Below are positions 1 through 40,991 of a stretch of DNA of 64,000 nucleotides, in pieces. Numbering within the stretch: position 1 is the stretch's first letter; each line of letters opens with the position of its first letter. The DNA is taken from the IMG/VR virus record IMGVR_UViG_3300032893_000012, positions 45,322-109,321 of that record, one strand, 5' to 3'. Made by a program: the position numbers and the translations under genes. This DNA comes from a virus. The notes under the pieces were generated by a model that worked only from the letters and a program-made list of their open reading frames with translations, had not been told where the DNA came from and did not search any database.

Positions 1-224
1 GAAAGGTGCTCTGCAACGAAACCTGATCCATTACCTCGAACCGGAGAGAGTGATTGCTGTGCCCACATTGGAATTGGTCCTTCACAATCGACGCATGCTG
101 GTTTTCGCGTCGGCAGTCGTTGCTGTTGAATGCAGTCGGCCGAACGGAGACCCTCATCGGTCGGGCCTTGTACGGGGACGTCTGTAACGAAATTCGGATG
201 CCCGTAAGCTTGAGCGGGGGTCAT
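1..224 (-). CDS. Hypothetical protein, runs off the window edge (MTPAQAYGHPNFVTDVP...)
   Basis: ATG at 224 overlaps the TGA of the upstream gene (ATGA); frame open to position 1. Confidence 0.55.
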   Translation of the reverse strand, partial: MTPAQAYGHPNFVTDVPVQGPTDEGLRSADCIQQQRLPTRKPACVDCEGPIPMWAQQSLSPVRGNGSGFVAEHL

Positions 225-445
225 GGGAACCTCGGTGGAGCTAATTGCTGTTGCGGCTGCGGATCAGGCCCGGCGCCGATCGCTGCACCGACAAAACCGC
301 CAAAGACCGCTCCGAGTGCGACGCCTGCCTCTTGAGCGTCACCACGGGTTAGTCCTCCAGGGAATCTGGTTGCGAGCTGTTCACCGACGATCGCTCCCAC
401 GATGACGCCAAGTCCGCCGCCGAGTCCAGCTAACGCGCGGCTCAT
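221..445 (-). CDS. Small glycine-zipper membrane protein, putative virion membrane protein
   Basis: ATGA-coupled start at 445; two GxxxG hydrophobic segments; resembles 14916..15167. Confidence 0.7.
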   Translation of the reverse strand: MSRALAGLGGGLGVIVGAIVGEQLATRFPGGLTRGDAQEAGVALGAVFGGFVGAAIGAGPDPQPQQQLAPPRFP

Positions 446-1329
446 GGGACATCGCTCCCGATGTTCTGGTCGAACACCAGCGCTCCGGCGATGGATCCAT
501 ATTGCGCGAACGTCGGATACGCAGCAACGAACCGATCCTCGGATCCGAGGGCAGCGATCTGTTGCGCCGAGACGGTTGGATCGCTGAAAAATGGATTCGT
601 CGACGGATCGTTTTGACGCACACTCGCGAACAGCGCGACGTCGCACGGAACAGGTAGAGGCACATCGAGCACGCGCTCGCTTCTCGTTGTGCGCCACGGA
701 TATCGGAGCTCGTGAATGTTGCCGAGACTAGCCGCGAGAGGCGTACCCCACGGACGTCCACCGTTCGGAGCCGTGTACGGCGCAAGATTTTGAAAAAGCA
801 ACGCAGGTGAAAGAGAGTCCTGGAAGATAAACCCGTCCGTGTTGAACGGATTTCTGGTGTCTCGTTGCACCTTGTTGATCACCATCACGTGCCAGGAGAT
901 GTCGCCGTCGAGCGGATGCCAAAGCGGGCTCTCGATCTCCTTACGGAAAGTGACTGTGCTGCCCAGCGGTGGCCCAGAGATGGCTCCGTCTTCTACAATC
1001 GGTATCCGCGCAACGAGTTCGGCGTACTGGCGGATCCCGACCAGACGAACGCCACAATTGTCCGAACTCTGCTCGCCGGTACCAAAGCTCGCTCGCGCCA
1101 GAAGAAATAGATATCGCGCGTCACCGATAGCTGCGCTCGGAACGGATGGGACTACGAGACCCGTGTAGGCGTTCGTGTTGTACGGATCGCTTCCGATGAA
1201 TCCGAACTCGGAATTCGGACCTACGGTGACGAGTTCCTGTCTCCCGTTCGCGAGTACCGAACGGATCTGTTCCGCTACACCGCCGGGGCGGTATTGCATA
1301 CGGATCACGTTGTCGGTCTTAGCGGCCAT
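442..1329 (-). CDS. Hypothetical beta-rich protein, putative virion structural protein
   Basis: 295 aa ORF coupled in the operon downstream of the capsid candidate; alternating hydrophobic pattern. Confidence 0.6.
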   Translation of the reverse strand: MAAKTDNVIRMQYRPGGVAEQIRSVLANGRQELVTVGPNSEFGFIGSDPYNTNAYTGLVVPSVPSAAIGDARYLFLLARASFGTGEQSSDNCGVRLVGIRQYAELVARIPIVEDGAISGPPLGSTVTFRKEIESPLWHPLDGDISWHVMVINKVQRDTRNPFNTDGFIFQDSLSPALLFQNLAPYTAPNGGRPWGTPLAASLGNIHELRYPWRTTRSERVLDVPLPVPCDVALFASVRQNDPSTNPFFSDPTVSAQQIAALGSEDRFVAAYPTFAQYGSIAGALVFDQNIGSDVP

Positions 1330-1331
1330 TT

Positions 1332-1979
1332 TCAGCGCGTGGGTAGAAGCAGTTGCAAATCTGGTGTTTCGATGCCCAGCTTGCGCAAATTCGAACGCGC
1401 GTCTGCGTCTGAGAGATCGTCTATGGTCTTATCTAGAAATTGCCACCCTAGAAACGTGAGCGTCACGGTGTACGGGACACTGACCGGCGTCTGCGTGAGG
1501 ATCGCGCTCACCTTCACGTTCATCTGCTTGTAAAGCGGCCATCCTTGTGGCCAGGTCACAGCGAAGACATCGATCAGATTGCCGAGATCCGTGAACGTGT
1601 CGTTGATGGCGTACTTCGGGCCTCCGTAAGCGTCCATCCTGATCCCGACACCCGTTTGCCCGCTCTGCTTCAGCTGGTTGAAGTAGGTCGATTGGAACGG
1701 ACTTCCAGCGAAACTGTTCTGCTGAAACAGGTTGTACGAGACGCGCTCGATGAGCGTGTCTTGAGTCAGGTTGTTCTGAAAGCTCTGAACTACCGGCGGT
1801 GCGTTCACTGTGCTCGAGGAGAACTGGATCGGAATATCGAGCACGGTCGGCACGCGGGGGACGCCAATGATCATGGCGTACGCAAATCGCGGTGCGTAGA
1901 TAGCGAGATTCCTCACATCGAAATCACGAGGCTGCAAGGCGGGCCTTCTTTCTTTGGCGGTATTTCTCTTGCCGCACAT
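1332..1979 (-). CDS. Hypothetical beta-rich protein, putative minor capsid/structural protein
   Basis: AGGAG SD before ATG 1979; strand-like segments (MNVKVSAIL, YTVTLTFLGWQ). Confidence 0.6.
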   Translation of the reverse strand: MCGKRNTAKERRPALQPRDFDVRNLAIYAPRFAYAMIIGVPRVPTVLDIPIQFSSSTVNAPPVVQSFQNNLTQDTLIERVSYNLFQQNSFAGSPFQSTYFNQLKQSGQTGVGIRMDAYGGPKYAINDTFTDLGNLIDVFAVTWPQGWPLYKQMNVKVSAILTQTPVSVPYTVTLTFLGWQFLDKTIDDLSDADARSNLRKLGIETPDLQLLLPTR

Positions 1980-2078
1980 TGCTCCTGACAGAAAAATCCG
2001 CATGCGGCTTTACTGTCTTACAGCCGCCGCAAAACTTCTCTACTTGTGTGGCAGTCGACTTCAAAAACTTGTTCTCCT

Positions 2079-2125
2079 GAAACGCGACGAGCGGCGCGGC
2101 GCTGTTTTCGCCGGCGCCGCTCGCG
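2079..2125 (-). terminator. GC-rich hairpin downstream of the capsid candidate (terminator/stability element)
   Basis: Arms cgagcggcgcggcg / cgccggcgccgctcg, followed by a short T run on the minus strand. Confidence 0.5.
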
Positions 2126-2173
2126 CTATGTGCTTAGAAAAGGCGATCGACCTTCTTCGGCACTCCTCTCGAA

Positions 2174-3511
2174 TCAGCCAGCCTTCTGCACGAGCTGCGG
2201 CGCGTTCTGGCTGCAGTATGCCTTCCAGCCGCCGGGCATTTCCCAGCCCTTGATCTTGATACCGATCTTCAGGATGCCACCCTTGAAGACCTCTCGGCAG
2301 ACGTTGACCGACTGCTGGATCAGCACCGGCGTCGCGTCGAGCGTCTGCTCCAACATGACGTTGTTTGCGCCTGAAGCAATGGCGCCTGCGGTCGGTACAC
2401 CGTTGCCTGCCGCAGCCCCCACCTGTGTCGAACAGGAAAGATTCGTGTCCGGCGAGATGTTGACACCGAGAGGCTCGTTGTTGATCGTGACTGCCTGGAG
2501 CATGAGCGCCTGGTGCACGGCGTCCTGCACGACGAACAGCATGCCGATGGGGATACCGCGCTCGAGGAAGCACGGACTCTCGATCGGCCGGTACATCTGG
2601 CCACGGCAACCGTAGCCCTGCCACCGGAGACCGCCCCACGTAACCGGTGCGAGATCGAAGTCGCGCGTCGGGTGGAACACGCCGACGTTGTTGGTCGCGC
2701 TCGTGCTGTTGACGCTGCCGACGCGCCTGAAATTCACCGGAAGGAAGATCGTCGCCGATCCCTTCGAGCGATAGAGCGCGTTGACCGCAGCCACGAATTC
2801 GATGATCGGCACCTCGCTCGTGCCGCTCGCTTCGGCGTCCGCGAAGGATCCGAAGTACGAGACGTCGGCCGCGAGCTCGTTCAGTACGAGCTCACGCTGC
2901 GAGGTCTTCCATTGGAACTGGTAGGCGTTGATGAAGTTCCAACCTGCACGCCACACGTCGGCACCGAACTCGAACACCGCCGGAGACGGCGGCGTATCGC
3001 TCGTCGGAGTCGCGCCGGCGAACTGTCCACCGAGTGCGCCGTTGAAGAGATCGTTGGCGGTGAACACGTCCGGTGAAGGAGGCGGAACCTGCGTCGTTGC
3101 CGGCGCCGCGAAAGCGTTGCCGATCGTCGAGAAGCTCATTGGTTCGCAGAAGGTGTGCACGCCGACTCCCTGAGCGAGGATATCGGTTTGCAAGATCCCG
3201 TTGATGAGGAACGTCGAATCGATCGACGCCACTCCGGGCACGCTCGATGAACCGCTGAGCAGGTTCACCGTGTCTCCGAGAGTGGCGAGCGCCTCCTCGG
3301 CAGTGAGCGGCAGAGGGATCGTCCAGACCACCTCTTCGATGACGGGGATGTTGCCGAATGAGCAACGAAGGCACTTGTCCATCGCGGCTGCGGCGAGCGT
3401 GCCGTCGATCTTGTTGGGGTCGAGACCGAGTCCAAACTGCGGACGCGCCACTTTCGGCTGGTCTCCGCCGAAGGTCTTGATGGTTCTGCCGATGATGCTT
3501 CTCGAGGACAT
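2174..3511 (-). CDS. Candidate major capsid protein (445 aa, fold unverified)
   Basis: AGGAG SD before ATG 3511; strongly C/G-ending codons; flanked by hairpins; beta-rich; follows the core-protein gene. No family motif recognised. Confidence 0.45.
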   Translation of the reverse strand: MSSRSIIGRTIKTFGGDQPKVARPQFGLGLDPNKIDGTLAAAAMDKCLRCSFGNIPVIEEVVWTIPLPLTAEEALATLGDTVNLLSGSSSVPGVASIDSTFLINGILQTDILAQGVGVHTFCEPMSFSTIGNAFAAPATTQVPPPSPDVFTANDLFNGALGGQFAGATPTSDTPPSPAVFEFGADVWRAGWNFINAYQFQWKTSQRELVLNELAADVSYFGSFADAEASGTSEVPIIEFVAAVNALYRSKGSATIFLPVNFRRVGSVNSTSATNNVGVFHPTRDFDLAPVTWGGLRWQGYGCRGQMYRPIESPCFLERGIPIGMLFVVQDAVHQALMLQAVTINNEPLGVNISPDTNLSCSTQVGAAAGNGVPTAGAIASGANNVMLEQTLDATPVLIQQSVNVCREVFKGGILKIGIKIKGWEMPGGWKAYCSQNAPQLVQKAG

Positions 3512-3570
3512 GATTTTTCGAGCTCCTGTTTTGCTTCGCCGTTTCTCTGGGCCGACGCGAAGCGTCTCTG

Positions 3571-3612
3571 ACACCTCAACCCCGGGGCTCGAGGCCTACC
3601 GGGGCGAGGTGT
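3571..3612 (-). other. Intergenic stem-loop between the core protein and capsid candidate genes
   Basis: acacctc..ccccgg / ccgggg..gaggtgt nested inverted repeat. Confidence 0.45.
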
Positions 3613-3626
3613 TTCACTGAACGAGT

Positions 3627-5312
3627 TCAGGTGCCGGGCAGGTACGGCAGCTCCTCGCGACTTTCTCCGAGGAAAGCGGAGTGACCGGCGAGCGGATCGC
3701 CTACGCACCCGCACGACGGATCCGAATGCGGTCGCGCCTGTGGCCCGGGACCGACGTCTGAGGGCGGTCCTGGTTGCCAATCCTGGCTCACGCCAGGTTG
3801 ACCCGGATTACCGCGTCCGTACGGCGCTCCGGTCCCCATGGACTGCGCCACGGTCGGGTAGTCGCTTCCGGGACCACCGGTTCCCCACGTGTTTTGCACG
3901 GTGGGGTACTGGGAGTCCTGAATGCCGGTGGCGTTTCGCAGCGCCTGGCCAGCATCCGGGTAAGGCGACTCCGCGGCGAGCGCGAACGGACCCACGTCGG
4001 CTCCGGAGAGCACGCCAGCCACGGCAGTCACCTGCTTCTGCTGCATGTTCAGGGATGCCGCGACCTCCGCTGGATAGAGGCGCACGATGATGCTCTTCTG
4101 GAGCGACGGAGGACTCGTGTCCTTCGGTGTGAGCATCGGCATGAGGAAGTTGTTCCAGAACATCCGGAACAGATTCACTCCGGCGCCGAGCGCCAGACCA
4201 TCCAATGCCGCTTTCCCTGTTCGATTGCGGACGGCATACGCCGAGAGCAACGCTGGCGCGGCAGCGACCCCGACTCCGGCGCCGATGCGCATGAGGTTGG
4301 GACGCATGGCCACGTTCAACGTGTTTGCGAGCGTGCCCGAACCATCGCTCGTAAACTTGTCGGTCGGCTTCGGATCTGTCGAGGACGGATTGTACGTAGC
4401 GAGCAAGCGATCGATGCCGTCCGCTAGAATGAAACCGACGCCGCTGGTGACAACCGCCACCGCGAAATCAGCAACACCCATTCCGCTTCCGCCTCCGCTA
4501 GATGCGTGCATACGCCGACTGTGACGCCGACGAGAATGACGACGACGAGGCGATTCCATCACGTGCGCTCGGCGCCGGCTGTGGCGCCTGCGACGACGAC
4601 GCGGAGCTTCGCTCACCACCGCTTCTCGAGTGGTTCGCCTACGCGCGTGCCGGCGCGTCTTCTTGCGACGCCAACCCTTCTTGGCTGCCTTCCGGTGACC
4701 GGAGGGGTTACCGCGCCACGCCTGCACGTTGCTATGCACGCGACGCCGATGCCGGCGACGTCGCCACTTCTGCTGCGGCGTGAGCACGCGCTTGCGCGTT
4801 CGACGACTTGCGCGGGCCTGTGTCTTGCGCGCTCGGCGACGACGCCTCCGCTTGGGGGCTGCCACCGATGTAGCTGCACGAACGCGCCGGCGACGCGCGC
4901 GCTTGGGCGCACTCTTCTTCTTGCTAGAGCGACGACGACGACGGGGTGAGGATACTTTCGCAGTTCTGGCCATGCTTTCCTCTCGAGCGACTACGGCGCG
5001 GATGCCTTTGCCGAACGGGACGGTCCGTTTGACTTTGGACCCTTTCGGATCGAATTGACGGATGCGGATGTACTGGTCGGTGACGTCCACCTTCCCGTAC
5101 CGGTAGCCGTGAGACCTAGCCCACGCTTTCGCCTTGCTCTCGGTCCACCCGGCGCTGCGATGAAACAGCAACGATTGGACAGACATCGATTTCGACTCGT
5201 GCGGCGCAACGGCGTCCGTACGCGGGTATGCGATCGGAGATGGCCTGTTTCGCGCGACATCACTACGGCGTGATTCGCTGAGATCGGCCAGTCGATCGTC
5301 GTAAAGACCCAT
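3627..5312 (-). CDS. Arg-rich protamine-like core protein with a small N-terminal domain and membrane segments
   Basis: QSLLF..WT..KAKAW..HG..KVDVT..IRQFDP domain; about 160 aa poly-Arg tract; three hydrophobic Gly/Ala segments. Start uncertain; internal SD + ATG at 4973. Confidence 0.7.
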   Translation of the reverse strand: MGLYDDRLADLSESRRSDVARNRPSPIAYPRTDAVAPHESKSMSVQSLLFHRSAGWTESKAKAWARSHGYRYGKVDVTDQYIRIRQFDPKGSKVKRTVPFGKGIRAVVAREESMARTAKVSSPRRRRRSSKKKSAPKRARRRRVRAATSVAAPKRRRRRRARKTQARASRRTRKRVLTPQQKWRRRRHRRRVHSNVQAWRGNPSGHRKAAKKGWRRKKTRRHARRRTTREAVVSEAPRRRRRRHSRRRAHVMESPRRRHSRRRHSRRMHASSGGGSGMGVADFAVAVVTSGVGFILADGIDRLLATYNPSSTDPKPTDKFTSDGSGTLANTLNVAMRPNLMRIGAGVGVAAAPALLSAYAVRNRTGKAALDGLALGAGVNLFRMFWNNFLMPMLTPKDTSPPSLQKSIIVRLYPAEVAASLNMQQKQVTAVAGVLSGADVGPFALAAESPYPDAGQALRNATGIQDSQYPTVQNTWGTGGPGSDYPTVAQSMGTGAPYGRGNPGQPGVSQDWQPGPPSDVGPGPQARPHSDPSCGCVGDPLAGHSAFLGESREELPYLPGT

Positions 5313-5539
5313 GTCACGATGCACTGACAGGCTCTCAGCGCAACCTATTACGGTCAATACGATGGCAAATAACGAGACGAATCACGCGCGCGTTGCCATC
5401 ACGCGAATGCGCGTCAACACCCCGACTCAGCACATGTCTAAAAATTTAGTATTCACGCGATGTTACGCATGAACACCCTCGTGACAATTCGACGCCAAAT
5501 ACCACTACGACATCGGCGTAACTCGAGCACCGTTTCTGT

Positions 5540-5572
5540 TCAACGAACGTTAAACAATCGTCAAACGATCGT
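5540..5572 (-). repeat. 3 x 11-bp tandem array (consensus ACGTTCGTTTG), putative operator
   Basis: Minus strand reads acgatcgtttg acgattgttta acgttcgttga; same unit at 12535 and 26199. Confidence 0.65.
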
Positions 5573-5576
5573 TTGA

Positions 5577-7208
5577 TTATCGGATGTTCGGGTAGAGCAG
5601 ATCGAGCAAAGTTGTGCGTTTACGGTGCACGCCGCCGAGCGAGCCTTCGCTCATACCAACGAAGTCTCCCGCACCGATCTCTTTTGCGGTCTTCCCTGGT
5701 TCGACCCACCACTCTTTTGCGTTGGGAGAGACGTGTCCGACGGGATAGTTCGTCGTTCCGTCCATTCTCACCCAATCTCCGAGGTCATCTTCGAACGCCA
5801 TGAATACGTGTGTCGGTACTTCATACGGCGCACGGTGACTGCTTCCGATGATCATGGCGTCGATACCGATCGACATCACCGCTGCGGCGAGCGTGATAGC
5901 CGCTTCGTCACAGTTGCTTACGGTTACGTCGTGCTCTGGGAGGTAGACGTAGTGATCGTCGGTAGAAATATCCCAGCAAGGGACTTTTCTGACGGATCGA
6001 TCTATCGATCGAACCGACAGTGTGAGTGATCCTTTCTCCCGTTGACCGACACGCCACAGAGGATGCTTTCCAGCTCCGCCATGTTGCTCTGGAGTGAGCA
6101 TTTTAACGCTTGTCATCTTGCCGAACATACGATGCAGTACGCGCACCTGAAGCATGAGTTGTCTGCTAGTCGTCGAATACGTACGCGTGGCGGCGCCGGT
6201 GTTCTTCGTGCTATCGGCCATCAATCCGCGCAAGGCCGCAGCGGCGCTAGCCTCTTCGAGATTAATCGTTTCCAGATGTTTAAATCTCGCTCGAGATCCT
6301 AGTCCGGCTATCCGTGAAGCCCATTCTCTATCTTTGATCTCGATGTATTTCGCGTGCCAGAGAGTCTCGATCCCGAGGCGTTCGCAGATGGCCTTGACCT
6401 CATGCTTCTGTTCTTCTTTGCGTTTGCCGTCGCGACCGCCAATGCGAAATTTCAGATGCGGCAGATTTTTGTTTTTGCTCGCTTCCACCCATCCGTCTGC
6501 GAGCGTCAGAGCTTCGACGTACATGCGATCCGGATCAACTCGCATCGATCCGAAAACGATACGTTCTGGTTGGAGAAGTGCGTCTCCCTCCGACAGATCA
6601 GTCACGCGGACACGCTCAAATGCGTTGCAATCTTTTTGGTAGCAGGCTCCGTGTGCTGACCGACCGTGCGGACACCTGCCGACATATACCTTGTGATCGC
6701 CGGTCAAATGCATCGTCGAGCCGTTGCTCATCTCGATAGCATCGACCGAAAGCGCTCCTTTTGCCCATTTTTGCGTAACTTCGCTCCACTTGTCCTTGCC
6801 CCAGATACGATCGCCGATATTGATCTTTTCGATCGGAATGAATTCAAAATCGTCGCGTAGGAGCAGCGTTCCTTCCGGGAAGCAATCGCCGCCGATGATG
6901 CAAAGCCCTCCCTCGTCGAGACAGAGAAGCTGGTTCGGTGTCGCCATAAATTCTCCCATGACTGGGTCAGCGACGTACGGAACCTTCTTTCTGAAGGCAT
7001 CGAGAATACACTGCGCCTTTTGACGTTTCCCGCCACGTGACACGCCTTTTTTGTCGAGCTGTTGGAGCACCCAGGCGCGCAATCTCGGACTCATTCGTGC
7101 GGACCATGCGCGGTCGGCCACCTCTTGCAAGGATTTCTTCGCTCCCTTAGCGCCAGCAGGGTGCGGTCCAGCATCTGTCTTCACTCCATTTATAGGCTTG
7201 TCGATCAT
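5577..7208 (-). CDS. Transglutaminase-like Cys enzyme (putative protease) interrupted by an intein
   Basis: Spliced extein reads YVADP..GGD|CDEAAITLAA..THVF..WVRMDG, the Cys-His-Asp triad of the transglutaminase-like fold; 219 aa after splicing. Confidence 0.85.
   Translation of the reverse strand: MIDKPINGVKTDAGPHPAGAKGAKKSLQEVADRAWSARMSPRLRAWVLQQLDKKGVSRGGKRQKAQCILDAFRKKVPYVADPVMGEFMATPNQLLCLDEGGLCIIGGDCFPEGTLLLRDDFEFIPIEKINIGDRIWGKDKWSEVTQKWAKGALSVDAIEMSNGSTMHLTGDHKVYVGRCPHGRSAHGACYQKDCNAFERVRVTDLSEGDALLQPERIVFGSMRVDPDRMYVEALTLADGWVEASKNKNLPHLKFRIGGRDGKRKEEQKHEVKAICERLGIETLWHAKYIEIKDREWASRIAGLGSRARFKHLETINLEEASAAAALRGLMADSTKNTGAATRTYSTTSRQLMLQVRVLHRMFGKMTSVKMLTPEQHGGAGKHPLWRVGQREKGSLTLSVRSIDRSVRKVPCWDISTDDHYVYLPEHDVTVSNCDEAAITLAAAVMSIGIDAMIIGSSHRAPYEVPTHVFMAFEDDLGDWVRMDGTTNYPVGHVSPNAKEWWVEPGKTAKEIGAGDFVGMSEGSLGGVHRKRTTLLDLLYPNIR
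5913..6884 (-). mobile_element. Intein (324 aa) with a LAGLIDADG-type, possibly degenerate, endonuclease region
   Basis: Block A CFPEGTLL, block B LTGDHKVY, LTLADGW / LRGLMADS / STTSRQL blocks, block F-G CWDIST..VTVSN followed by +1 Cys. Confidence 0.9.
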
Positions 7209-8257
7209 CGGCGATTACGCTTTCGGTTTGTCAGATAGATCGCACTTCCTACGACTCCTGCCCCGAGGAGTCCGATTCCCGCCATCGCTCCGACGCTGAG
7301 TCCAGATGATGCAGTCGCTACAGGTGCAGCAGGCGTGATAGGCGCAACAGGTGATACGGTTACATGCGGTGCGCACGCAGTCGGAGCGCTCCCTAGCGCC
7401 TGCGCTAGAGCGCTCGCTGTCGCTTGCTCGTAGTTGCTCGTGTTGATCGGAACTGGGTTAGCGCCGGACGAATTCCAAGCCGTTTTGAAGGCGTGAACCG
7501 CTGCGTTGACGCTGCTTCCGGGGTGCGTCACCGACGTGCAGTAACTCGGATCGGCGACAATGGCGGCTACTGCGGCTCGTGCGGCATCGGCTACTGAGGT
7601 AGGCGGCGCCGGGACATCGCCGTAAAACGCTTGCAGCGCTAGCCTAGCCGATGACATCGCATCCGAGAGATCGTGTAAGACGTCCGAACGAACCTGAAAG
7701 GAATCGTTGCTATTTCCGGCAACGATTGCAGCACTAAGCGCCGGAAGTCGAGCGCGCGCTTTACTGGTGCTCTTACGTACGTCTTGCGCGTACGGGATTG
7801 CGTACACCGCAGGGGACCCACTGCCGACGATTTCCGAGACCGATGCATCCACAACATTGGCAGCATTTTCAGCGGCGTCGCCGAATCCTTGATCTCCCAT
7901 CGCAGCAAGCGCACTGACCTTCGCATTCGCCGCATCGAGCGCGGCGTAGTCGGCGAGCACTCCAGCGGCCGCATCACCGAGAGACGATGGCGTGACGCCA
8001 TCCATATGAGGAAGCGCAGCGAAGTACGCCCGGGGACGCGTATCCAGTTCGCCAGAGAACCACTTCTCCGGTAAGTTGAGAACCTCGCCCTCGCGTAGAT
8101 CTTTGAACGTAACGAAACCGTTCGGAAGACGCTTTGCCGCCTTGTGAGGGTTGGCGCGCACGATGTCAATTGCGCATTTTGGGCAGCCAGCCATGTCCGG
8201 CCGACTGGCGATACTAGCCGGGCTATCTCCAGCCTGAACGACGTAAGTCCGCGTCAC
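7205..8257 (-). CDS. LysM-domain protein with a C-terminal membrane anchor
   Basis: TYVVQAGDSPASIA..IVRANP..LREGEVLNLP; C-terminal hydrophobic helix followed by RKRNRR. Confidence 0.8.
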   Translation of the reverse strand: MTRTYVVQAGDSPASIASRPDMAGCPKCAIDIVRANPHKAAKRLPNGFVTFKDLREGEVLNLPEKWFSGELDTRPRAYFAALPHMDGVTPSSLGDAAAGVLADYAALDAANAKVSALAAMGDQGFGDAAENAANVVDASVSEIVGSGSPAVYAIPYAQDVRKSTSKARARLPALSAAIVAGNSNDSFQVRSDVLHDLSDAMSSARLALQAFYGDVPAPPTSVADAARAAVAAIVADPSYCTSVTHPGSSVNAAVHAFKTAWNSSGANPVPINTSNYEQATASALAQALGSAPTACAPHVTVSPVAPITPAAPVATASSGLSVGAMAGIGLLGAGVVGSAIYLTNRKRNRR

Positions 8258-8310
8258 GCCTCAAAGACTACGCGCTAGTCATGAGGGTCGTCCAGCAGCA
8301 GCTGGAATCT

Positions 8311-8502
8311 TTAGGCGTATTCGCGCTCTGGCTGGTGTACGACAGGGCTTCCGTTACCGTCCGCGAGCCGGATTCCTTCATTTTCGACTGCCATCCGTAC
8401 GAGCGGACTCTTGAGGAGTTCGAGTAACTTGATCGCTTGTTCAAGCCCCTGATGGTCGTTCGCCGCTTCGATCGCAACGCTCATTGTGACGCGGTATCTC
8501 AC
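8311..8502 (-). CDS. Hypothetical protein
   Basis: GTGA-coupled 63 aa ORF in the operon. Confidence 0.6.
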   Translation of the reverse strand: MRYRVTMSVAIEAANDHQGLEQAIKLLELLKSPLVRMAVENEGIRLADGNGSPVVHQPEREYA

Positions 8503-8774
8503 GCAGAGAACCCCGCATCAGGCTGCGGCTCAGGCGGCTGTGGAGCGTTTTCCTGCGGAGGCGTGTCAGAAGTAATCGGAGGAGCGCTAGGCGGCGTCGA
8601 ACCCACAACAGCAGCAGCGAATATTTCTCCAGCTATCCGAAAAAGATTCGGATCGATTCCACGCAAGTGTCTCAAAGTGTCGTGGATAGCGTTCAGTGTC
8701 CAACGCCGCCCTACGTCTTCGGCATACTTGAGCACTTCATCGTCAGTGAGTTCAACTTGAATAGAAAAACGCAT
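8499..8774 (-). CDS. Hypothetical protein with a Pro-rich tail
   Basis: TAATG coupling at 8774. Confidence 0.6.
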   Translation of the reverse strand: MRFSIQVELTDDEVLKYAEDVGRRWTLNAIHDTLRHLRGIDPNLFRIAGEIFAAAVVGSTPPSAPPITSDTPPQENAPQPPEPQPDAGFSA

Positions 8775-10456
8775 TAGGAGTTTCCTTGTCCAGAAATATT
8801 CGGTGGTGCCCACGTCTGTCGCGATGCAGGTGAAGGCGAAATAGGCGGCGGTAGATTCGCTGGCGGAGGAGGAAGCGGCGCTGCGGTCGGGGGCAATTGA
8901 TGCGGATCCACCGCTGCCGCAACGAATCCTGGCGGTGGTTGGTAGTCTGGCGGCACCTCTAAGTAGCCTGGCGGCAACACGCGCTTCTGTTCTGGAGCTC
9001 GATTTTGACTCTTCTGGATCGCCTCGCGTTGTTCACCGAGCCACTTGAGAAAGCTTCCCAGGTTCGCCGCTGCAGATTCGCCCCAGCGCATAGTGCCATC
9101 CGCTTTGCTGTACGCGATCTTGCCGTTGCCAGTATCGAGAATTTTGATCGGACTGTCGTCTTCTTCGGTCGCTACCGGTTCCGGCGCTTCTCGCTCTTCG
9201 TCCGTCCCTAGAATACTTCCAAATTCTTTCGCGGTAGCTACAGCCGTGCGTACCAATGTCAGCGATTCTTTGAGATGCTCCGCCGCAGTTTGCTGGCGCG
9301 GTGGCTGCTCACTGCTGTATCGCGGTGGCGGTGGCGGCGCCTGACCTGGATCTCCTTGCGGGTAATACTGACGCTGAGGCCCCATGCGCGCGCCCGATCC
9401 GGGCCCCATGTTCGGAACGAACAGCGACGCTAGTCGGTCGATCGGTACGAAACCGAGCGGCGTCCACACCGTGCCCTGAGGAGCAGGTATCGGGGGCGCA
9501 CCCATCATTCCTGGAACGAAGCTTGGTACCGCTGGCGGCGTCGGCGGCGCTCCCTGCGTTACCTGTTGCGGCTGCATGGACTGCGCGAGAGTGAGCATCC
9601 GCTGGAACCATTCCATCATCGTCGGCATGTCCGCCCCCGGTGGGGGCATTGGCGGCGGCGGCGGAGGAGGCGGCGGCGCTTGCGGCGGAGGCTGCATGCT
9701 CTGAACTATTTGCTGCATCCGCTGAAACCACTCGAACATCGTACCCATGTCGGGTCCAGCCGGCGCCTGAACAACGACTGGTACTTGCGGCGGCTGCGGC
9801 GACGGAGCTGTCGCAGCTGCGGGCGGATACGCTGGTTGCGGCTGCGGGGGCGAGTAACCAGGTTGAGCTGGATAACCGGGCAGCGGATACTGTGGTGGAT
9901 AGCCGGGCGGATATGGATATGACATCGGCTGTCCTTGCTGCGGTCGAGTATCCGGCAATGTGATCTTACCGTTACCGCGAAACTGCTTGCTATTGGTGTC
10001 GAGGATTTTGACCTCGTAGTCGGCCTCACCGTGCTGGCCGTGAATGATCTTGAGCGCGTCGTAGAGTTCCGCCGCGGATCTTGGACGACTGATGATTACT
10101 TGCTGGACCGGAGTTCCAGTAAGCCGTCTAACGTGTATGTCGAGTGTGTTTGCTGGCCAATACCGAAGAAGCGTCTCGTACGTGGTGAGCAGATCACCGG
10201 TGTTGAACGAGACCTTGCTCTGGTTCGAGCGCTTCTTGTCGACGATAGCGTCGAGGCGACGGTTTTCACGTACGCTTTCGGCGTCGACGGCGCCTATCGC
10301 GCGAACGGCATCTTCGGATGCTACGAGTTCGCCAGTGTCCTCGTCACGTTCAGCCCCAACCTCGGCCAGGACGTCGGCCTCGTCCTCCTGCGCAGGTGTA
10401 TTCGAGGCTGTATGCGCAGGAGGCGATTCACTGCGAATTCGTCTACGTGTTCCCAT
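8774..10456 (-). CDS. Pro/Gln-rich low-complexity protein with an internal duplicated helix
   Basis: 560 aa; poly-Pro tracts; DMxTMxEWFQRMxxxxQSMQP occurs twice. Confidence 0.75.
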   Translation of the reverse strand: MGTRRRIRSESPPAHTASNTPAQEDEADVLAEVGAERDEDTGELVASEDAVRAIGAVDAESVRENRRLDAIVDKKRSNQSKVSFNTGDLLTTYETLLRYWPANTLDIHVRRLTGTPVQQVIISRPRSAAELYDALKIIHGQHGEADYEVKILDTNSKQFRGNGKITLPDTRPQQGQPMSYPYPPGYPPQYPLPGYPAQPGYSPPQPQPAYPPAAATAPSPQPPQVPVVVQAPAGPDMGTMFEWFQRMQQIVQSMQPPPQAPPPPPPPPPMPPPGADMPTMMEWFQRMLTLAQSMQPQQVTQGAPPTPPAVPSFVPGMMGAPPIPAPQGTVWTPLGFVPIDRLASLFVPNMGPGSGARMGPQRQYYPQGDPGQAPPPPPRYSSEQPPRQQTAAEHLKESLTLVRTAVATAKEFGSILGTDEEREAPEPVATEEDDSPIKILDTGNGKIAYSKADGTMRWGESAAANLGSFLKWLGEQREAIQKSQNRAPEQKRVLPPGYLEVPPDYQPPPGFVAAAVDPHQLPPTAAPLPPPPANLPPPISPSPASRQTWAPPNISGQGNS

Positions 10457-10459
10457 CGT

Positions 10460-10849
10460 TCAAACTTGCGCCTGTCCGCCCGTCGTCTGCTGCGGTTCTT
10501 CCTCTTCTGGTTCGGTTCCGTCAGATTCGGCTGCCTCGAGTTCGTCAGCGAAGACCTCGAGAGGCATCGCCTCTTGTACGAATCGAATTCGACCCATTGG
10601 AACGAAGTCGCGCATACCTACTGCGTCACCACCTTCAACCGCATCCAAATACGAGAAAATCTCGATTCCTCCGCCCGCATCTGTTCCAATGAACATACGT
10701 ACGACTTTCGCGCCTGGCACGTGCGGATGCTCGCTACCCACCGCCCATCGTGTGGTCTCAGGCTGCCCCGATACGGGAGCTAGATTGTCACTGATCACGA
10801 GTGTGACCATTGGATAGGTCGGAGGCGGAAGCTTAAAAACTGTCGTCAC
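10460..10849 (-). CDS. Hypothetical acidic protein
   Basis: GTGA-coupled 129 aa ORF. Confidence 0.65.
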   Translation of the reverse strand: MTTVFKLPPPTYPMVTLVISDNLAPVSGQPETTRWAVGSEHPHVPGAKVVRMFIGTDAGGGIEIFSYLDAVEGGDAVGMRDFVPMGRIRFVQEAMPLEVFADELEAAESDGTEPEEEEPQQTTGGQAQV

Positions 10850-11448
10850 AGCGCGTTATCCTCCAAGAATGAGTAGTAGCTCCGCCTACGAGCGTCGCCG
10901 GCGACGATAATGTGGTCGAGGAACTTGATGTCAATGGTTTCGAACGCATCAACGAAGGCGTCTGTCGTTTCGATGTCCGCCTCGCTCGGTTCGGCTTCGA
11001 TGCCCGACGGGTGTACGTGGAAGATGATCACCGCGTGCGCCCCGTCCGCTACGGCGGCTTGAAGAGTCGGTAGGATGGGTGCCATCACGCTGGACGGCTC
11101 CCCACGTCCGGTCTCAGCAAGACCCTTGAATCGTAAATGCAGATCAAGCGTCACGACTCCGAAAACCTCATTGACCTCGTCTTCGATGGCCTCACCGATG
11201 AGATGGAAGGCCTTTTCCGGTTCGTCGAGCGGTCCGATCTGATCTGAGAGCGCGTTACACGCCGCGAACCTGTCAGCGTCCTTCTGAATCGTCAAAAACG
11301 GACGGCACCGCGCGCCGCGCTTGCCATCGATGATGAGCGGTTCTACTTCGCGCGGTCGTCGCGGGGCCACCCGATCCCGTACAATACCGCGGATGGCATG
11401 TTCCGAGACTCCGTGCATGCGAGTAAGCGGCCTGCACGCGCAAGTCAC
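10846..11448 (-). CDS. JAB/MPN (RadC-like) domain protein
   Basis: EVFGV..HVHPSG..PSEADIETT..FLDHIIV, an intact JAMM motif. Confidence 0.9.
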   Translation of the reverse strand: MTCACRPLTRMHGVSEHAIRGIVRDRVAPRRPREVEPLIIDGKRGARCRPFLTIQKDADRFAACNALSDQIGPLDEPEKAFHLIGEAIEDEVNEVFGVVTLDLHLRFKGLAETGRGEPSSVMAPILPTLQAAVADGAHAVIIFHVHPSGIEAEPSEADIETTDAFVDAFETIDIKFLDHIIVAGDARRRSYYSFLEDNAL

Positions 11449-11753
11449 GCTACAGCCGCCTGTATTGATGCGCCTTTCAGATCGACAAATTCATCTAGCG
11501 ATACGCCGCGCACGCGGCAGATCGCTTCGTCGATCTTGAAAGTGACGCAATGCCTCTTGAAGGTCATGTCGTACACTTTTTGTGCCACGACGATGTCTCC
11601 CGGCTTGTATCCTGCAGCCTCTGCCGCTGGACCAACCTCGTCGAGCAGGAAACAGCGCGTGACACCTTTCGCGTGATCAAGCACCAGTTCACTGGTCGGT
11701 TTCGGCACAAGAGCGCGTCCGATGACCCAATCGTTAACAGGTTCGAGCTTCAC
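11445..11753 (-). CDS. Divergent GroES-like co-chaperonin
   Basis: MKLEPVNDWVI..ELVL..VGP..KPGDIVV..DEAICRV follows the GroES pattern (LxPLxDRV, VGxG, GDxV). Confidence 0.65.
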   Translation of the reverse strand: MKLEPVNDWVIGRALVPKPTSELVLDHAKGVTRCFLLDEVGPAAEAAGYKPGDIVVAQKVYDMTFKRHCVTFKIDEAICRVRGVSLDEFVDLKGASIQAAVA

Positions 11754-12334
11754 GTCTGTTCCTCTTCTTGTTCGATAGTGAATCGATCGTAGAAAGACTG
11801 CGAAGGTGACGGAGGGGTTAGCGCAGCGATGGTACCGTCCGTATTCGGCGGAGGTTCGACCGTTGCGCTTTGAAGGCGAGCCAGTTCCGCTTTCGTTGTT
11901 TCGAGCTCGATCTCGAGAGCCATACGCGAGGTTAATACTTCACTGAAATACTCACGACTTGGGGCGAAGTACGGTTCCTGTGCCGGCGGACGCGCAGCGA
12001 GAGGAGCAAACTGTCGTGCGGCGTTCAATACAACGAGAGCGTTCATGCGCTGTTCGCGGTCAGGGCAACCTCGAGTGATCAGAACAGCAGGCTTCCCTGA
12101 ATCTGAAGTGTCGTAGCGATCGTTTACGCACGGTTCCGTTTCATCGTCTTTGCCGGGACAGCCGTTCACGTGCGCGCATCGTTCAAGTATTCCGAAGGCA
12201 GCGCGCGCCGCAATCTGCCAGCCGACTTTGTTGCGCCACAGAGCGAGCTTGACGGCGTTCCAGTCGCGTACCGATATCGGTACCTTCTGATCGACTGGAG
12301 TTTCGAGCCCCTGCCTTCTTTTTTCGTTCATCAT
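11750..12334 (-). CDS. Hypothetical protein
   Basis: 194 aa coupled ORF. Confidence 0.65.
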   Translation of the reverse strand: MMNEKRRQGLETPVDQKVPISVRDWNAVKLALWRNKVGWQIAARAAFGILERCAHVNGCPGKDDETEPCVNDRYDTSDSGKPAVLITRGCPDREQRMNALVVLNAARQFAPLAARPPAQEPYFAPSREYFSEVLTSRMALEIELETTKAELARLQSATVEPPPNTDGTIAALTPPSPSQSFYDRFTIEQEEEQT

Positions 12335-12681
12335 CAGATCGTCGCTCCGTCTGGTTCAACGATGCGGATGTACCCGTCGCTCGGAGGGCGCTTAGCCGCT
12401 TGAACAAGGATCGAGCGCATCCACGCGCTCATGCTTAGTCCGCGTTTCTTCGCTCTTTCTTCGATCAAACGGTACTGAGCCGGCGTGAGCTTGACGCCCG
12501 CGGTCTTGGCCTTGAGCGGTAGACGTTCGGTTGGACGTTCGTTTGCCGTTCGTTTGCCTTTCGTTGACGCTTTCGTATACTGCTCTCCGTCCGCTAGACG
12601 TGTCAAGACGCTAGACGTAGACTCAGCGTACGGATGGCACAGTTCGGCATCGGACCTGAACTCGCGGCACAGTGCCCACAA
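12334..12681 (-). CDS. Ribbon-helix-helix DNA-binding protein (start uncertain)
   Basis: KTAGVKLTPAQYRLIEERAKKRGLSMSAWMRSIL, CopG/MobC-like; no clear ATG near the domain. Confidence 0.7.
   Translation of the reverse strand: MWALCREFRSDAELCHPYAESTSSVLTRLADGEQYTKASTKGKRTANERPTERLPLKAKTAGVKLTPAQYRLIEERAKKRGLSMSAWMRSILVQAAKRPPSDGYIRIVEPDGATI
12535..12567 (+). repeat. 3 x 11-bp tandem array overlapping a putative sigma70 promoter
   Basis: acgttcgtttg ccgttcgtttg cctttcgttga; TTGCCT(12554)-N16-TATACT(12576). Confidence 0.65.
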
Positions 12682-13047
12682 GCGTCGACGCCAGACGGTT
12701 GGCGTCCGTGGTCACCTGACGCAGATGGGCCAATTCCGGACGCTCTAGCTGCGCGCGCGGCTGCTCTTGTGGGCGATCAGGCGACCGCGCTCGGAGCGAC
12801 AGAAAGCTATCCTCTTCCAGGGGTTACGACACTTATTCGAATCGAACCACGTGTCTGGGGACGCGATGCACAGGGCGCACTCGTCGAGGGGTGCTTTCGA
12901 AGTGGCGGTGTCTATCTACCGTACGGAACCCCGGCAGGCGCAGCGACACCGAGCGACGACAAGCTCGCAAAAACAGTTGGAGTACTCACCGCGGTGAGCC
13001 TGGTGGTCGGAACTGCGGCAACGATTGCTACCTGGGGACGTCGATGA
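12634..13047 (+). CDS. Membrane-anchored protein, putative virion protein
   Basis: C-terminal TM helix followed by GRR; N-terminal QFGIG motif. Confidence 0.7.
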   Translation: MAQFGIGPELAAQCPQASTPDGWRPWSPDADGPIPDALAARAAALVGDQATALGATESYPLPGVTTLIRIEPRVWGRDAQGALVEGCFRSGGVYLPYGTPAGAATPSDDKLAKTVGVLTAVSLVVGTAATIATWGRR

Positions 13048-13226
13048 CCATCGAACGTAATGGTCGTACTGTTGTTGGATTCGGAGATGAGGCTGTTTCG
13101 CTTCCGATCAAAGCGCCGCCGTCGACGTGGACCGTTGCGCTCGCGACGAGCGTCGTTGGCGCTGCGACAGGATGGGTCATCGAGGAAATAGCGAGCAACA
13201 TCCGAGGTCGAAAGAAGCGCCAATAA
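13044..13226 (+). CDS. Small membrane protein with an NGxxVVGFGD leader
   Basis: ATGA coupling; hydrophobic helix and basic tail. Confidence 0.7.
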   Translation: MTIERNGRTVVGFGDEAVSLPIKAPPSTWTVALATSVVGAATGWVIEEIASNIRGRKKRQ

Positions 13227-13849
13227 TGAACGAGCAGATTCGAATCAATGGCGCATCTGTCGTCGGGCTCGGGGACGCGAAAGTTGTGGCGCCTCCAAGT
13301 TCCCGTGTAGCGCAAACACTCGCGGATGCTTTTCTCGGTGCGGCAGCGGGAGCAGGGCTCGGTGGGCTTATCGGAGGGAAGACTGGCGCACTAATCGGCG
13401 TCGCGGTTGGGGGTATCGGTGTGGGAGCAGTTACGTATGCGGTGCTGGGAGAGGATACGTGGAATACATCACCTCTACCTCCAACAACGACATCTGTCTG
13501 GCGCCAGCTCACTCAACCGACTGACAGCGTGAAGGCGGGAGAGGAGATGGCCGTAGCGATCTTAGGACCCAACAGGACACCTCTGTCGCCGGATCTGATC
13601 GCGCAGCTAGATGCTGCACTTGCATTGATTCCTAGCTACAACGTGACGGCGCTCATAGCGAAGTATCCGCCAGGAACATCGCCGCCTGCAAACGATTGGC
13701 CCTCAGACTATGTGATACCGCCCGGAATGAGAGATGATTTCGGTCCCGGCGCGTATCGCGTGCTACTTCGTGCGCTTATCGATTCCCCTCCGACGTTCTG
13801 GCACTCCGTACCATCAAATGTCGGGACGTTCGGAATATGGGCACGATGA
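13226..13849 (+). CDS. Glycine-zipper membrane protein with an NGxxVVGLGD leader
   Basis: TAATG coupling; GAAAGAGLGGLIGG..GVAVGG. Confidence 0.7.
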   Translation: MNEQIRINGASVVGLGDAKVVAPPSSRVAQTLADAFLGAAAGAGLGGLIGGKTGALIGVAVGGIGVGAVTYAVLGEDTWNTSPLPPTTTSVWRQLTQPTDSVKAGEEMAVAILGPNRTPLSPDLIAQLDAALALIPSYNVTALIAKYPPGTSPPANDWPSDYVIPPGMRDDFGPGAYRVLLRALIDSPPTFWHSVPSNVGTFGIWAR

Positions 13850-14400
13850 AGTACGGCGGTTACTCTGAAGCGGAGGCAACGATGATCTTTCTCGGCGAAA
13901 CGGCGTTCCTAGGCGCGTGTCCCGTCATTCGGCCGGAAGGGATCTATCTCGATGGGCAGCGTGTGATTAGATTTGGGCTCGGTGCCGTAGAACGCAAAAA
14001 TCCGCTACCTGCAGGAAGATACTGGGTCGATGTTTTCGCAAAAGATTCAGACGCTTTTGGCGCATGGCTCAACTCAAATAAAGCCACCGTTCAGGTACGC
14101 ACAACGGAACATTTTGACTCGGATCCGGTACGTGATTGGTACCTGTTTGAAGTAAGCGTTCCGACTCCGTGGCAGGGACCTGGTTTTCCAACTATCGCTG
14201 GGCCGCACGTAACGAGTTCGAGCGATACCGCACAACGACCCGATCCAGTACCTTCAGTCGCGACACAGGTTGAAAAAGAACTCGCGGATCTGAAAAGCGC
14301 AACCAGAACCGCGACATGGATCGGTGCTGCGGTTCTCGTCGTGGTTGGTGGAGCTCTACTCGTCTACTACGTACCTCGCCCTGCAACGCGATCTAGATGA
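13846..14400 (+). CDS. Membrane-anchored protein with a DGxxVIRFGLGA motif
   Basis: ATGA coupling; C-terminal TM helix. Confidence 0.7.
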   Translation: MKYGGYSEAEATMIFLGETAFLGACPVIRPEGIYLDGQRVIRFGLGAVERKNPLPAGRYWVDVFAKDSDAFGAWLNSNKATVQVRTTEHFDSDPVRDWYLFEVSVPTPWQGPGFPTIAGPHVTSSSDTAQRPDPVPSVATQVEKELADLKSATRTATWIGAAVLVVVGGALLVYYVPRPATRSR

Positions 14401-14603
14401 CGCTTCGAGCTCGCATTCAAGAATTGGAAGAACGAGTCGAAGCGATAGCCGCAGAACTCGCTGACGTACGTCAAAATCTACTCGAAGCCCTAGCGCGAGC
14501 AATCCACGGGCCGTCCCAACCGCCCCCGATACTCTCACTTCAGTCGCAAGACCCAAGCGAGAACGACGATGCCGACCACAATCACGAAAAGAATAAACGC
14601 TGA
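14397..14603 (+). CDS. Small coiled-coil protein
   Basis: ATGA coupling; heptad pattern. Confidence 0.5.
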   Translation: MTLRARIQELEERVEAIAAELADVRQNLLEALARAIHGPSQPPPILSLQSQDPSENDDADHNHEKNKR

Positions 14604-14858
14604 CGGGCGCGCGTTTTTCAATAGGACGCGGAGCCCAGTCGGACGAAGCGAAAACTGCGTTTCGCTCGGCAACTCATCTCGATAGCGATCGATCGCACTC
14701 TGGCTCTGCCGATCCTCTGCCTCGCCCTGCAGTGTCGCAAGTTCGTTTCCGAGTCGTCGTACACGCCCCCAGATCACGATAACCTCGGCTTTTAGCTCAT
14801 CGACTTCCCGCTCCAGGTCGAGTCGGCGCTGGCGTTCATCAGTCGGCATACCCACCAA
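14535..14858 (-). CDS. Coiled-coil protein with a C-terminal TM helix (holin-like architecture possible)
   Basis: Heptads followed by FILFVIVVGIVVLAWVL. Confidence 0.55.
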   Translation of the reverse strand: MVGMPTDERQRRLDLEREVDELKAEVIVIWGRVRRLGNELATLQGEAEDRQSQSAIDRYRDELPSETQFSLRPTGLRVLLKNARPSAFILFVIVVGIVVLAWVLRLK

Positions 14859-14915
14859 GGTAGCGCGAACTCACGCATTTCGCTTGACGGTACCGCAAGC
14901 GGTACTCTCGGGTTG

Positions 14916-15167
14916 TCAGCGCGGTAACTGTTGCGTCGGTACTGGTGCGGGTTCGTCACTTCCGATTGTCCCACCGATGAATGCTCCGACCACTGCGCCG
15001 GTCGCGCCGCCAACCACCATCGCGTCTTCGATATCTGCGCCACGTTGAGCCGCAGTGTATCTGACGCGCGGACGATACCGCGCTGCGTAATGCCCAGCGG
15101 CAGCGCCGGCAGCACCCCCGACTAACGCACCAAGCGCGCTCCAGAGACCAGTCTTGGCGTTGCTCAT
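14916..15167 (-). CDS. Small glycine-zipper membrane protein
   Basis: Two GxxxG helices; similar to 221..445. Confidence 0.7.
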   Translation of the reverse strand: MSNAKTGLWSALGALVGGAAGAAAGHYAARYRPRVRYTAAQRGADIEDAMVVGGATGAVVGAFIGGTIGSDEPAPVPTQQLPR

Positions 15168-26321: not shown

Positions 26322-29476
<3,155 letters not shown>

Positions 29477-33086: not shown

Positions 33087-33493
33087 TATTCTGGTTCTAT
33101 GTGTCGGTCGTTGAGTTTAAAATACGCTACCTCGACGGGTTCGCCGACCCAGTTTTTCCCGTCGTAATAGCGCGATGTGTTTTGTCCGTAAGGAAACCAC
33201 CCACTGCTTTGTTGGCATTCATCGCATGTACAACGGTTGCCCATGCTGCCGCCAACTTCGTGGCCGCCGTACATTCTGGCGCAGCGAGGACACTCGGCCC
33301 AGTAGTAACCGCAGAGCAAAGCATAGAGCCAGTTGATCGAACGAATGCGTGTCGGTAATTCATGCCCCTTCTCATGTTTTCGACGCTCTCCGATATTCTC
33401 CGAGTACCAACGCGCGGGGATCGCGAGCGCGATGTAGAGACACAAAAGCCCGAACGGTAAAATGAGAATAGCAGTGAAGATGTAGAGAATCAT
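33086..33493 (-). CDS. Membrane protein with a Cys cluster
   Basis: N-terminal TM; CPRC..GGHE..C..C. Confidence 0.55.
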   Translation of the reverse strand: MILYIFTAILILPFGLLCLYIALAIPARWYSENIGERRKHEKGHELPTRIRSINWLYALLCGYYWAECPRCARMYGGHEVGGSMGNRCTCDECQQSSGWFPYGQNTSRYYDGKNWVGEPVEVAYFKLNDRHIEPE

Positions 33494-33762
33494 TTGCGGC
33501 CCCTTTCCAAGTTCTCCCAATAGCGTATCAGACGGCAATCTCCGCGGTGTGGCCCCTCGCGACCGCCACCGCAATCGCAGAGCGACGGCTCCGGAGCAGA
33601 CGGCTTCGGCTTGAACGTCGCTTGCACCCAAATCGCCAGAAGGCCTGTGAAAATCGCTAGCGCTGCGCCTACTGTCACATCACGCAGCGCCCAACCTAGG
33701 TTGAACGCAGAGACGCAGAGCATGTTGATTCGAAACGCCTCCTGCACGTCCTTTTTGTTCAT
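33490..33762 (-). CDS. Small membrane protein
   Basis: ATGA coupling; two hydrophobic segments; CDCG..H..C. Confidence 0.55.
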   Translation of the reverse strand: MNKKDVQEAFRINMLCVSAFNLGWALRDVTVGAALAIFTGLLAIWVQATFKPKPSAPEPSLCDCGGGREGPHRGDCRLIRYWENLERGRK

Positions 33763-40978: not shown

Positions 40979-40991
40979 CAGATCCTCTCCT

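Follow-up and report, generated by a model that had tools for sequence, protein, structure and literature searches.

A candidate virion module of large, tailless, membrane-containing jelly-roll viruses of bacteria

Results

Gene content of the locus and its relatives

The stretch of DNA studied here (the window, 64,000 nucleotides) comprises bases 45322–109321 of IMG/VR virus record IMGVR_UViG_3300032893_000012, a 109,321-bp genome that CheckV classifies as complete and that has no end repeats. The region at the left end of the window, positions 1–15167, is probably the virion (morphogenesis) module of a new lineage of large tailless bacterial viruses that contain a membrane and have jelly-roll capsid proteins. 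Open reading frames (ORFs) were called on the entire record, beyond the window, and every gene listed for this region by a first-pass annotation of the letters was recovered (Table 1). From position 12681 down to 1, the minus-strand genes are tightly packed or overlapping. The series extends about 14 kb left of the window, to about genome base 31168, which agrees with the earlier view of a coupled operon running off the left edge. Going left from the window edge, the 238-amino-acid (aa) tail-anchored protein is followed by a LysM/PG_binding_1 protein of 452 aa that is anchored in the membrane at its C-terminus, then by two small proteins (78 and 182 aa), a collagen-repeat protein of 1814 aa and further proteins of unknown function. 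The 238-aa protein has no Pfam or PHROG match, and no tRNA genes were found.

Table 1. Features of the region, in window coordinates
Feature	Position	Strand	Remarks
238-aa tail-anchored protein, first 74 codons	1..224	−	ORF g44829-45545; C-terminal membrane segment and basic tail; kept in 30 of 34 related loci
74-aa Gly-rich protein, two membrane segments	221..445	−	Start overlaps stop of the 295-aa gene; from hydropathy scan and start-codon mapping
295-aa predicted single jelly-roll, candidate penton (vertex) protein	442..1329	−	
215-aa protein, candidate second capsid protein	1332..1979	−	223 aa if the ATG at 2003 is used
Intergenic RNA after the capsid gene	2030..2173	−	Long GC-rich hairpin at about 2086–2126, then GUUUC
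445-aa major capsid protein candidate, predicted jelly-roll based fold	2174..3511	−	
Hairpin upstream of the capsid gene	3571..3612	−	12-nt arms, 83% complementary; fold z −1.99
576-aa Arg-rich membrane protein	3627..5357	−	
543-aa transglutaminase-like Cys protease (putative) with intein	5577..7208	−	
324-aa Hint and LAGLIDADG intein	5913..6884	−	
350-aa tail-anchored protein, N-terminal LysM-like motif	7205..8257	−	Membrane segment at residues 319–337; kept in 31 loci
560-aa Pro-rich protein	8774..10456	−	Kept in 25 loci
Promoter-proximal operon genes	10460..12681	−	115-aa ribbon-helix-helix (NikA-like, E 3e-7), then 194 aa, 102 aa, 200-aa RadC-like JAB (RadC E 3.5e-23), 129 aa; partly conserved
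Divergent unit of four genes (137, 240, 187, 68 aa)	12634..14603	+	Three with membrane segments; patchy conservation, 1–13 loci
Two small membrane proteins: 107 aa tail-anchored, 83 aa Gly-rich two-segment	14535..15167	−	Not conserved in the fetched loci

Synteny was drawn from 31 related loci in IMG/VR, on contigs of up to 124.6 kb, and five related genomes of 79.6–117.7 kb (the present one and four relatives) were compared. Conserved around the capsid gene are the genes for the 560-, 350-, 543-, 576-, 445-, 223- and 295-aa proteins, and the 238- and 452-aa genes are kept in most loci. The module persists in the most distant relatives (45% capsid identity), the 560-aa gene excepted. Specifically, the relative G001 (79,604 bp, L039–L042) keeps the module gene set at 33–45% identity without the 560-aa gene, for which tblastn gave no match in G001/L036 and matches in L037 and L006. 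G001 carries an exact 127-bp direct terminal repeat. Because this length equals a common assembler k-mer, G001 is probably a circular or circularly permuted assembly rather than one with true terminal repeats. Besides the virion genes, G001 and the present genome have in common an SF2 helicase, a UvrD helicase, an RNase T exonuclease, a PD-(D/E)XK nuclease, Sak4, a ParB-like protein, Dam, RadC, GT2 and DUF7768.

The 445-aa capsid candidate

The 445-aa gene is the most conserved gene of a large family of 80–125 kb elements. An AGGAG ribosome-binding site lies 11 nt upstream of it, and GC-rich hairpins without U-tracts flank it on both sides. The downstream hairpin holds a perfect 10-bp inverted repeat at 2088–2123 (minimum free energy −53.6 kcal/mol, z −2.58). 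A simple terminator scan found no T-rich terminators around the gene. This combination of ribosome-binding site and flanking hairpins is the layout of a highly expressed gene, and suggests that the protein is abundantly made.

By sequence the protein stands apart from described families. It matched no Pfam or PHROG family and no meaningful PDB chain in single-protein and profile searches, tblastn against 50,697 GenBank phage records gave no match, and ESM Atlas held no usable match. Its own family is large: more than 400 homologues at 70–89% identity lie on contigs whose length reaches about 139 kb and in many cases is within 80–139 kb, and clustering at 50% identity in a library of 1.8 billion representatives gives 167 clusters.

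An AlphaFold2 model built from an 83-sequence alignment has a predicted local distance difference test (pLDDT) score of 87.7 and a predicted template modelling score of 0.85, with about 19 strands and four helices. Foldseek searches of PDB and BFVD returned nothing at E <= 1e-3. Below this level, the weak rows belong almost entirely to viral capsid proteins with a jelly-roll (papillomavirus L1, CRESS capsids, the STIV coat protein, an adintovirus penton), and the jelly-roll matches also include PBCV-1, EhV, Faustovirus and poxvirus D13. No HK97-fold protein is among the listed matches of either this model or that of the 295-aa protein. The first-pass annotation had described a beta-rich gene flanked by hairpins and had regarded an HK97 or non-capsid enzyme fold as incompatible with a capsid role. 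The model is beta-rich and points to a beta-sandwich of the jelly-roll type instead.

As to architecture, the model would be compatible with a double jelly-roll or with a single jelly-roll carrying an inserted tower. In favour of a tandem double jelly-roll are the size, the roughly 19 strands and, by our own strand assignment, a helix that follows the putative F strand in both halves; against it, the alignments cover about one barrel at most. Small targets of one domain consistently match about residues 54–423, so that the N- and C-terminal strands appear to lie in one barrel, unlike in the tandem double jelly-roll topology. Such a pattern could arise from one vertical barrel into which a large tower is inserted, the arrangement of sphaerolipovirus VP4 (PMC6414509).

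The 295-aa and 223-aa proteins

Alignments for both proteins were built from the related loci. The 295-aa protein, which had also been noted as beta-rich, models as an 8-strand sandwich; ESM Atlas offered only a poor model (pLDDT 0.28). A Foldseek search of PDB and BFVD with our model gave nothing at E <= 1e-3. The model suggests a single jelly-roll that is most like a sphaerolipovirus penton, which makes the protein a reasonable penton candidate; the weaker matches are to capsid proteins that form pentamers (polyomavirus VP1) and to further viral jelly-rolls. In the HHIV-2 structure the 27 major capsid protein (MCP) subunits are labelled A–X and a, and the first 40 residues of the penton protein are disordered (PMC6414509). 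From these labels and the disordered residues we infer that chain b, numbered 39–173, is the HHIV-2 penton.

The gene of the 223-aa protein ranks second in conservation within the module, with a mean identity of 69% across 33 loci, and an AGGAG site precedes its ATG at 1979. The protein has no family match and no PDB sequence match. When the three beta-rich families were compared by hhalign no similarity was detected, the sole echo being a non-significant match of a C-terminal strand (KGWE versus LGWQ).

Membrane, candidate core and putative wall-active proteins

The 576-aa protein, which the first-pass annotation called an Arg-rich core protein, begins with an N-terminal domain, continues with Arg blocks over about 160 aa and then with hydrophobic segments, and ends in a Pro/Gly tail. 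Its membrane segments are predicted at residues 293–311 and 358–376, and it is kept in 31 loci, distant ones included. Its composition makes it a candidate membrane-anchored protein that condenses DNA in the core.

The 543-aa protein is an enzyme of about 219 aa split by a 324-aa intein, with exteins at residues 1–108 and 433–543. Two homologues that lack the intein (213–219 aa) align with the entire Transglut_core profile at E 1e-3 and 3e-3, which falls short of the Pfam cut-off. A transglutaminase-like fold, which had been proposed before with no mention of the intein, is thus likely, if weakly supported. The intein is inserted directly before the putative catalytic Cys (GGD|C...SN|CDE) and has weak Pfam matches to Hint and LAGLIDADG_3, as well as matches to the PRP8 and PI-SceI inteins. 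Among about 30 related loci with the gene, it is carried by L014, L016, L017 and L033 in addition to the present genome, and most relatives are without it. This patchy presence makes it look like a recently mobile element in a gene of the structural module.

In the 350-aa protein, earlier read as a LysM protein with a transmembrane segment, the membrane segment is there and the LysM motif is visible, but the Pfam LysM match is not significant. Its 452-aa paralogue-like neighbour just left of the window matches LysM at E 4e-4, just under the Pfam cut-off, and PG_binding_1 clearly (E 1.6e-14). The 560-aa protein has two copies of the motif (F/M)EWFQRM...QSMQP separated by poly-Pro and no family match; a role as scaffold or matrix protein would be a guess.

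Six small ORFs with a predicted membrane segment lie in positions 1–15167, of which only those at 221–445 and 14916–15167 are clearly Gly-rich with two segments. The first-pass annotation had about eight small Gly-rich membrane proteins, and its point that the module is rich in membrane proteins holds. There are four larger tail-anchored proteins beyond these six. At least nine proteins with membrane segments lie in or beside the module, and the module proteins are tail-anchored and have no signal peptides. Their number is consistent with an internal membrane under the capsid.

Absence of tailed-phage genes and of a packaging motor

Pfam was run on every ORF of at least 400 aa of the present genome, and PHROGs on those left unexplained. 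No terminase, portal, HK97 capsid or tail protein was found among these ORFs of the 109 kb; for tail genes this result covers only part of the small ORFs, and other portal and terminase families were covered via the ORF scans only. Six-frame searches of the five genomes with hidden Markov models (HMMs) found no TerL_ATPase, Terminase_6N, Phage_portal, Phage_capsid or Pox_A32, and no FtsK_SpoIIIE was found in the present genome. Large ORFs of G001 likewise gave no match to a tailed-phage hallmark. The only PHROG matches to "tail fiber" families lie on collagen Gly-X-Y repeats. What the first-pass annotation had said of 64 kb, namely that terminase, portal, HK97-type capsid and tail genes are missing, holds for the whole genome and, in the case of terminase, portal and HK97 capsid genes, for four relatives. 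Its suggestion that a packaging ATPase might lie left of position 1 does not: searches of the whole left flank and the genome yielded no ATPase of the A32, FtsK or HerA type.

A six-frame Walker A scan of three genomes returned only helicases, a Sak4/RecA-like protein, a probable deoxynucleoside monophosphate (dNMP) kinase in G001 and a HerA-like fragment in the relative G003, and no small P-loop (Walker A) protein is conserved across the group. Each of the proteins considered as a packaging ATPase was set aside. The 243-aa P-loop protein of G001 is dNMP kinase-like (weak DNMK match) and has no counterpart in the present genome. The HerA/DUF87 fragment of G003 (L048:9943-10584, minus strand; E 5e-8) turns Arg/Gly-rich after about 110 aa, is apparently frameshifted and has no counterpart in the present genome or G001. 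In the 240-aa protein at 13127–13849 the string GGLIGGKT belongs to a Gly-zipper membrane segment and does not represent a Walker A motif, and two proteins with GxxGxGK[ST] are both SF1 helicases.

Collagen-like proteins and glycan enzymes

Two proteins with collagen repeats are encoded in the genome, one of 1814 aa left of the window (L004:6410-11854, minus strand) and one of 958 aa at 26352–29228 (plus strand). They share an N-terminal peptide with the 182-aa protein, which is beta-rich (L004:12642-13190, minus strand). This peptide could be a common docking signal for fibres at the vertices. In G001, proteins downstream of the module also begin with short collagen-like segments, which suggests that the module includes fibres.

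Genes for glycan enzymes (GH16, two GT2, two HtrL_YibB-like) cluster at 30328–41011 on the minus strand, and the cluster is largely conserved in G003. These enzymes could glycosylate the collagen-like fibres or modify the host surface.

Host and habitat

Several signals point to a bacterial host: Shine-Dalgarno sites, overlapping stop and start codons, the PG_binding_1/LysM proteins, RadC, and the Dam, tyrosine integrase and TnpB/Cas12-like genes, which the genome carries along with a gene for a ParB-like protein. The capsid gene also lies on three short contigs assigned to Binatia and Polyangiaceae metagenome-assembled genomes, which is a weak hint to the host. The DNA is present in three wetland metagenomes, one of which is probably the source sample, and no RNA dataset is listed for it. 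The host is probably a mesophilic wetland or soil bacterium.

Discussion

Our results on the five genomes suggest that the region encodes the virion of large tailless viruses with an internal membrane and a jelly-roll capsid. The proposal of a large undescribed virus of the jelly-roll type had been made in the first-pass annotation. It is supported by the two jelly-roll models, by the membrane-rich module and by the lack of tailed-phage hallmarks, and it loses the ATPase that was expected on the left. No published description of the group was found in full-text literature searches.

Two groups of known viruses come closest. With the sphaerolipovirus type (Helvetiavirae: HHIV-2, HCIV-1, SH1; Thermus phage P23-77) the module would share a tailless particle and membrane-associated assembly (PMC6414509), and its three neighbouring beta-rich genes might be the equivalents of large MCP, small MCP and penton. 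Helvetiavirae have two MCPs with a vertical single jelly-roll, of which the larger bears a tower domain. There are clear differences, too. The genomes are 80–125 kb as compared to 16–30 kb, the large protein has 445 aa as compared to about 230–290 aa, and there is neither a packaging ATPase nor sequence similarity; collagen-like fibres and the Arg-rich candidate core protein are present here, and the host is probably a mesophilic wetland or soil bacterium. More specifically, the combination seen in Helvetiavirae, an ATPase gene adjoining the MCP genes in a genome of about 16–30 kb, is not found. In the PRD1 type (Tectiviridae, Corticoviridae, Turriviridae; Bamfordvirae) the MCP has two tandem vertical jelly-rolls and builds trimeric pseudo-hexamers. 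A double jelly-roll would agree with 445 aa and about 19 strands, and the virion module likewise holds many small membrane proteins and a wall-active enzyme. The single jelly-roll penton of Bamfordvirae has its possible counterpart in the 295-aa model. Unlike in this group, only about one barrel aligns, the genome is 5–10 times larger, and the A32/FtsK-type ATPase of Bamfordvirae is absent. The features of Caudoviricetes (an HK97-fold MCP, portal, large terminase and tail genes) were not detected. Thus the module works most like those of sphaerolipovirus-type and PRD1-type viruses, and we file it in neither group, since the packaging ATPase, a defining feature of both, is missing, the genome is 3–10 times larger and there is no sequence similarity.

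It is important to note what weighs against a jelly-roll virus. Without a packaging ATPase, one hallmark gene of both the PRD1-like and the sphaerolipovirus-like lineages is gone. At most about 160 of the 445 residues align to any capsid protein, and the fold may be a double jelly-roll or a single one with a tower. The model of the 295-aa protein is of moderate confidence (pLDDT 66), and the 223-aa protein is no more than a candidate second capsid protein. The integrase, the ParB-like protein and the replication genes would also fit a plasmid-like element.

A non-viral mobile element, that is a large plasmid or an integrative element whose jelly-rolls, fibres and wall-binding proteins form a cell-surface or secreted structure (a coat, a fibre layer or a decoration of vesicles), is the alternative we take most seriously, although we consider it unlikely. 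The tyrosine integrase, the ParB-like protein, the set of recombination and replication genes, the lack of a packaging motor and the cluster of glycosyltransferases and GH16 would all suit such an element. It would have to explain, however, why two different proteins find their top matches in capsid and penton proteins from viruses that contain a membrane, and why the 445-aa protein is so strongly conserved and has the layout of a highly expressed gene. An Arg-rich DNA-binding-like protein in the same operon is not expected either, the proteins are tail-anchored without signal peptides, and no conjugation genes were seen in the ORFs scanned.

We find it improbable that the genome belongs to a very divergent tailed phage whose HK97 capsid, portal and terminase escape the profiles and in which the 445-aa protein is a decoration, fibre or receptor-binding protein. 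Even highly divergent phages normally have a TerL that can be recognised, and neither TerL nor portal nor HK97 was found in five genomes by six-frame HMM searches and by PHROGs on large ORFs. Genome size is indeed typical of tailed phages, and there are large unannotated ORFs (636, 491, 611, 479 and 719 aa), but no unannotated large ORF is conserved group-wide. The collagen-repeat proteins do match "tail fiber" families of PHROG, though within their Gly-X-Y repeats, and the listed matches of the two folded proteins include no HK97-fold protein. A eukaryotic virus, such as a small relative of giant viruses or of polinton-like viruses, is very improbable. The jelly-roll matches to PBCV-1, EhV, Faustovirus and poxvirus D13 recall such viruses, and giant viruses commonly encode collagen-like proteins, glycosyltransferases, a kinase-like protein and PrimPol. 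Set against this are the operons with overlapping stop and start codons, the Shine-Dalgarno sites, the peptidoglycan-binding domains, RadC, Dam and the TnpB/Cas12-like gene. Moreover, there is no A32 ATPase, and neither DNA polymerase A or B nor RNA polymerase was seen in the ORFs scanned.

If the region is a jelly-roll virion module, the 445-aa protein, perhaps with the 223-aa protein as a partner, may form capsomers that assemble on a host-membrane vesicle in which the tail-anchored viral proteins are embedded. The 295-aa protein would close the fivefold vertices and carry the collagen-like fibres (1814 and 958 aa) encoded just downstream. The LysM/PG-binding membrane proteins and the transglutaminase-like protease might act on the cell wall at entry or exit. 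The most speculative step concerns the genome. Since none of the five genomes yielded a packaging ATPase, the DNA may be enclosed without the help of a motor: a membrane-anchored, protamine-like protein would condense it and it would be enclosed during assembly, as in SPV1, and would not be pumped into a preformed shell. SPV1 (Sulfolobus polyhedral virus 1, Portogloboviridae) has jelly-roll capsid proteins over a membrane, a nucleoprotein core and no known packaging ATPase. The likeness would lie in the proposed mode of genome enclosure. SPV1 differs in its hyperthermophilic archaeal host and its 20-kb genome, there is no sequence similarity, and the candidate core protein here, being Arg-rich and membrane-anchored, is of a different kind.

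A more far-reaching proposal, about which we have more doubt than confidence, is that the group forms a deep unnamed lineage of bacterial jelly-roll viruses, at a rank from family to kingdom, within or beside Varidnaviria. Its genomes would be 5–10 times those of known tailless bacterial viruses, and it would have no motor, the genome being condensed by the membrane-anchored protamine-like protein and enclosed as shell and membrane assemble. Outside a few archaeal viruses, no such strategy is known to us. The tailless membrane-containing viruses described from bacteria have genomes of about 10–30 kb, and large jelly-roll viruses were, to our knowledge, thought to be confined to eukaryotes. If the proposal is true, the jelly-roll capsid design scales up in bacteria too, which bears on the origin of the large eukaryotic jelly-roll viruses. 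A widespread wetland and soil group with hundreds of capsid variants would then be a large blind spot for phage surveys that rely on terminase and HK97 markers, and it could be used to test how a genome is encapsidated when no ATPase motor is at work.

Three more genes outside the module were noticed. A 578-aa protein at L003:1289-3025 (plus strand; genome 21289–23025) has a Cas12f1-like TNB domain (E 8e-9). Within the window, a 601-aa protein at 49042–50847 (plus strand) has a weak protein-kinase match, and a 933-aa protein at 59671–62472 (plus strand) has a PrimPol domain.

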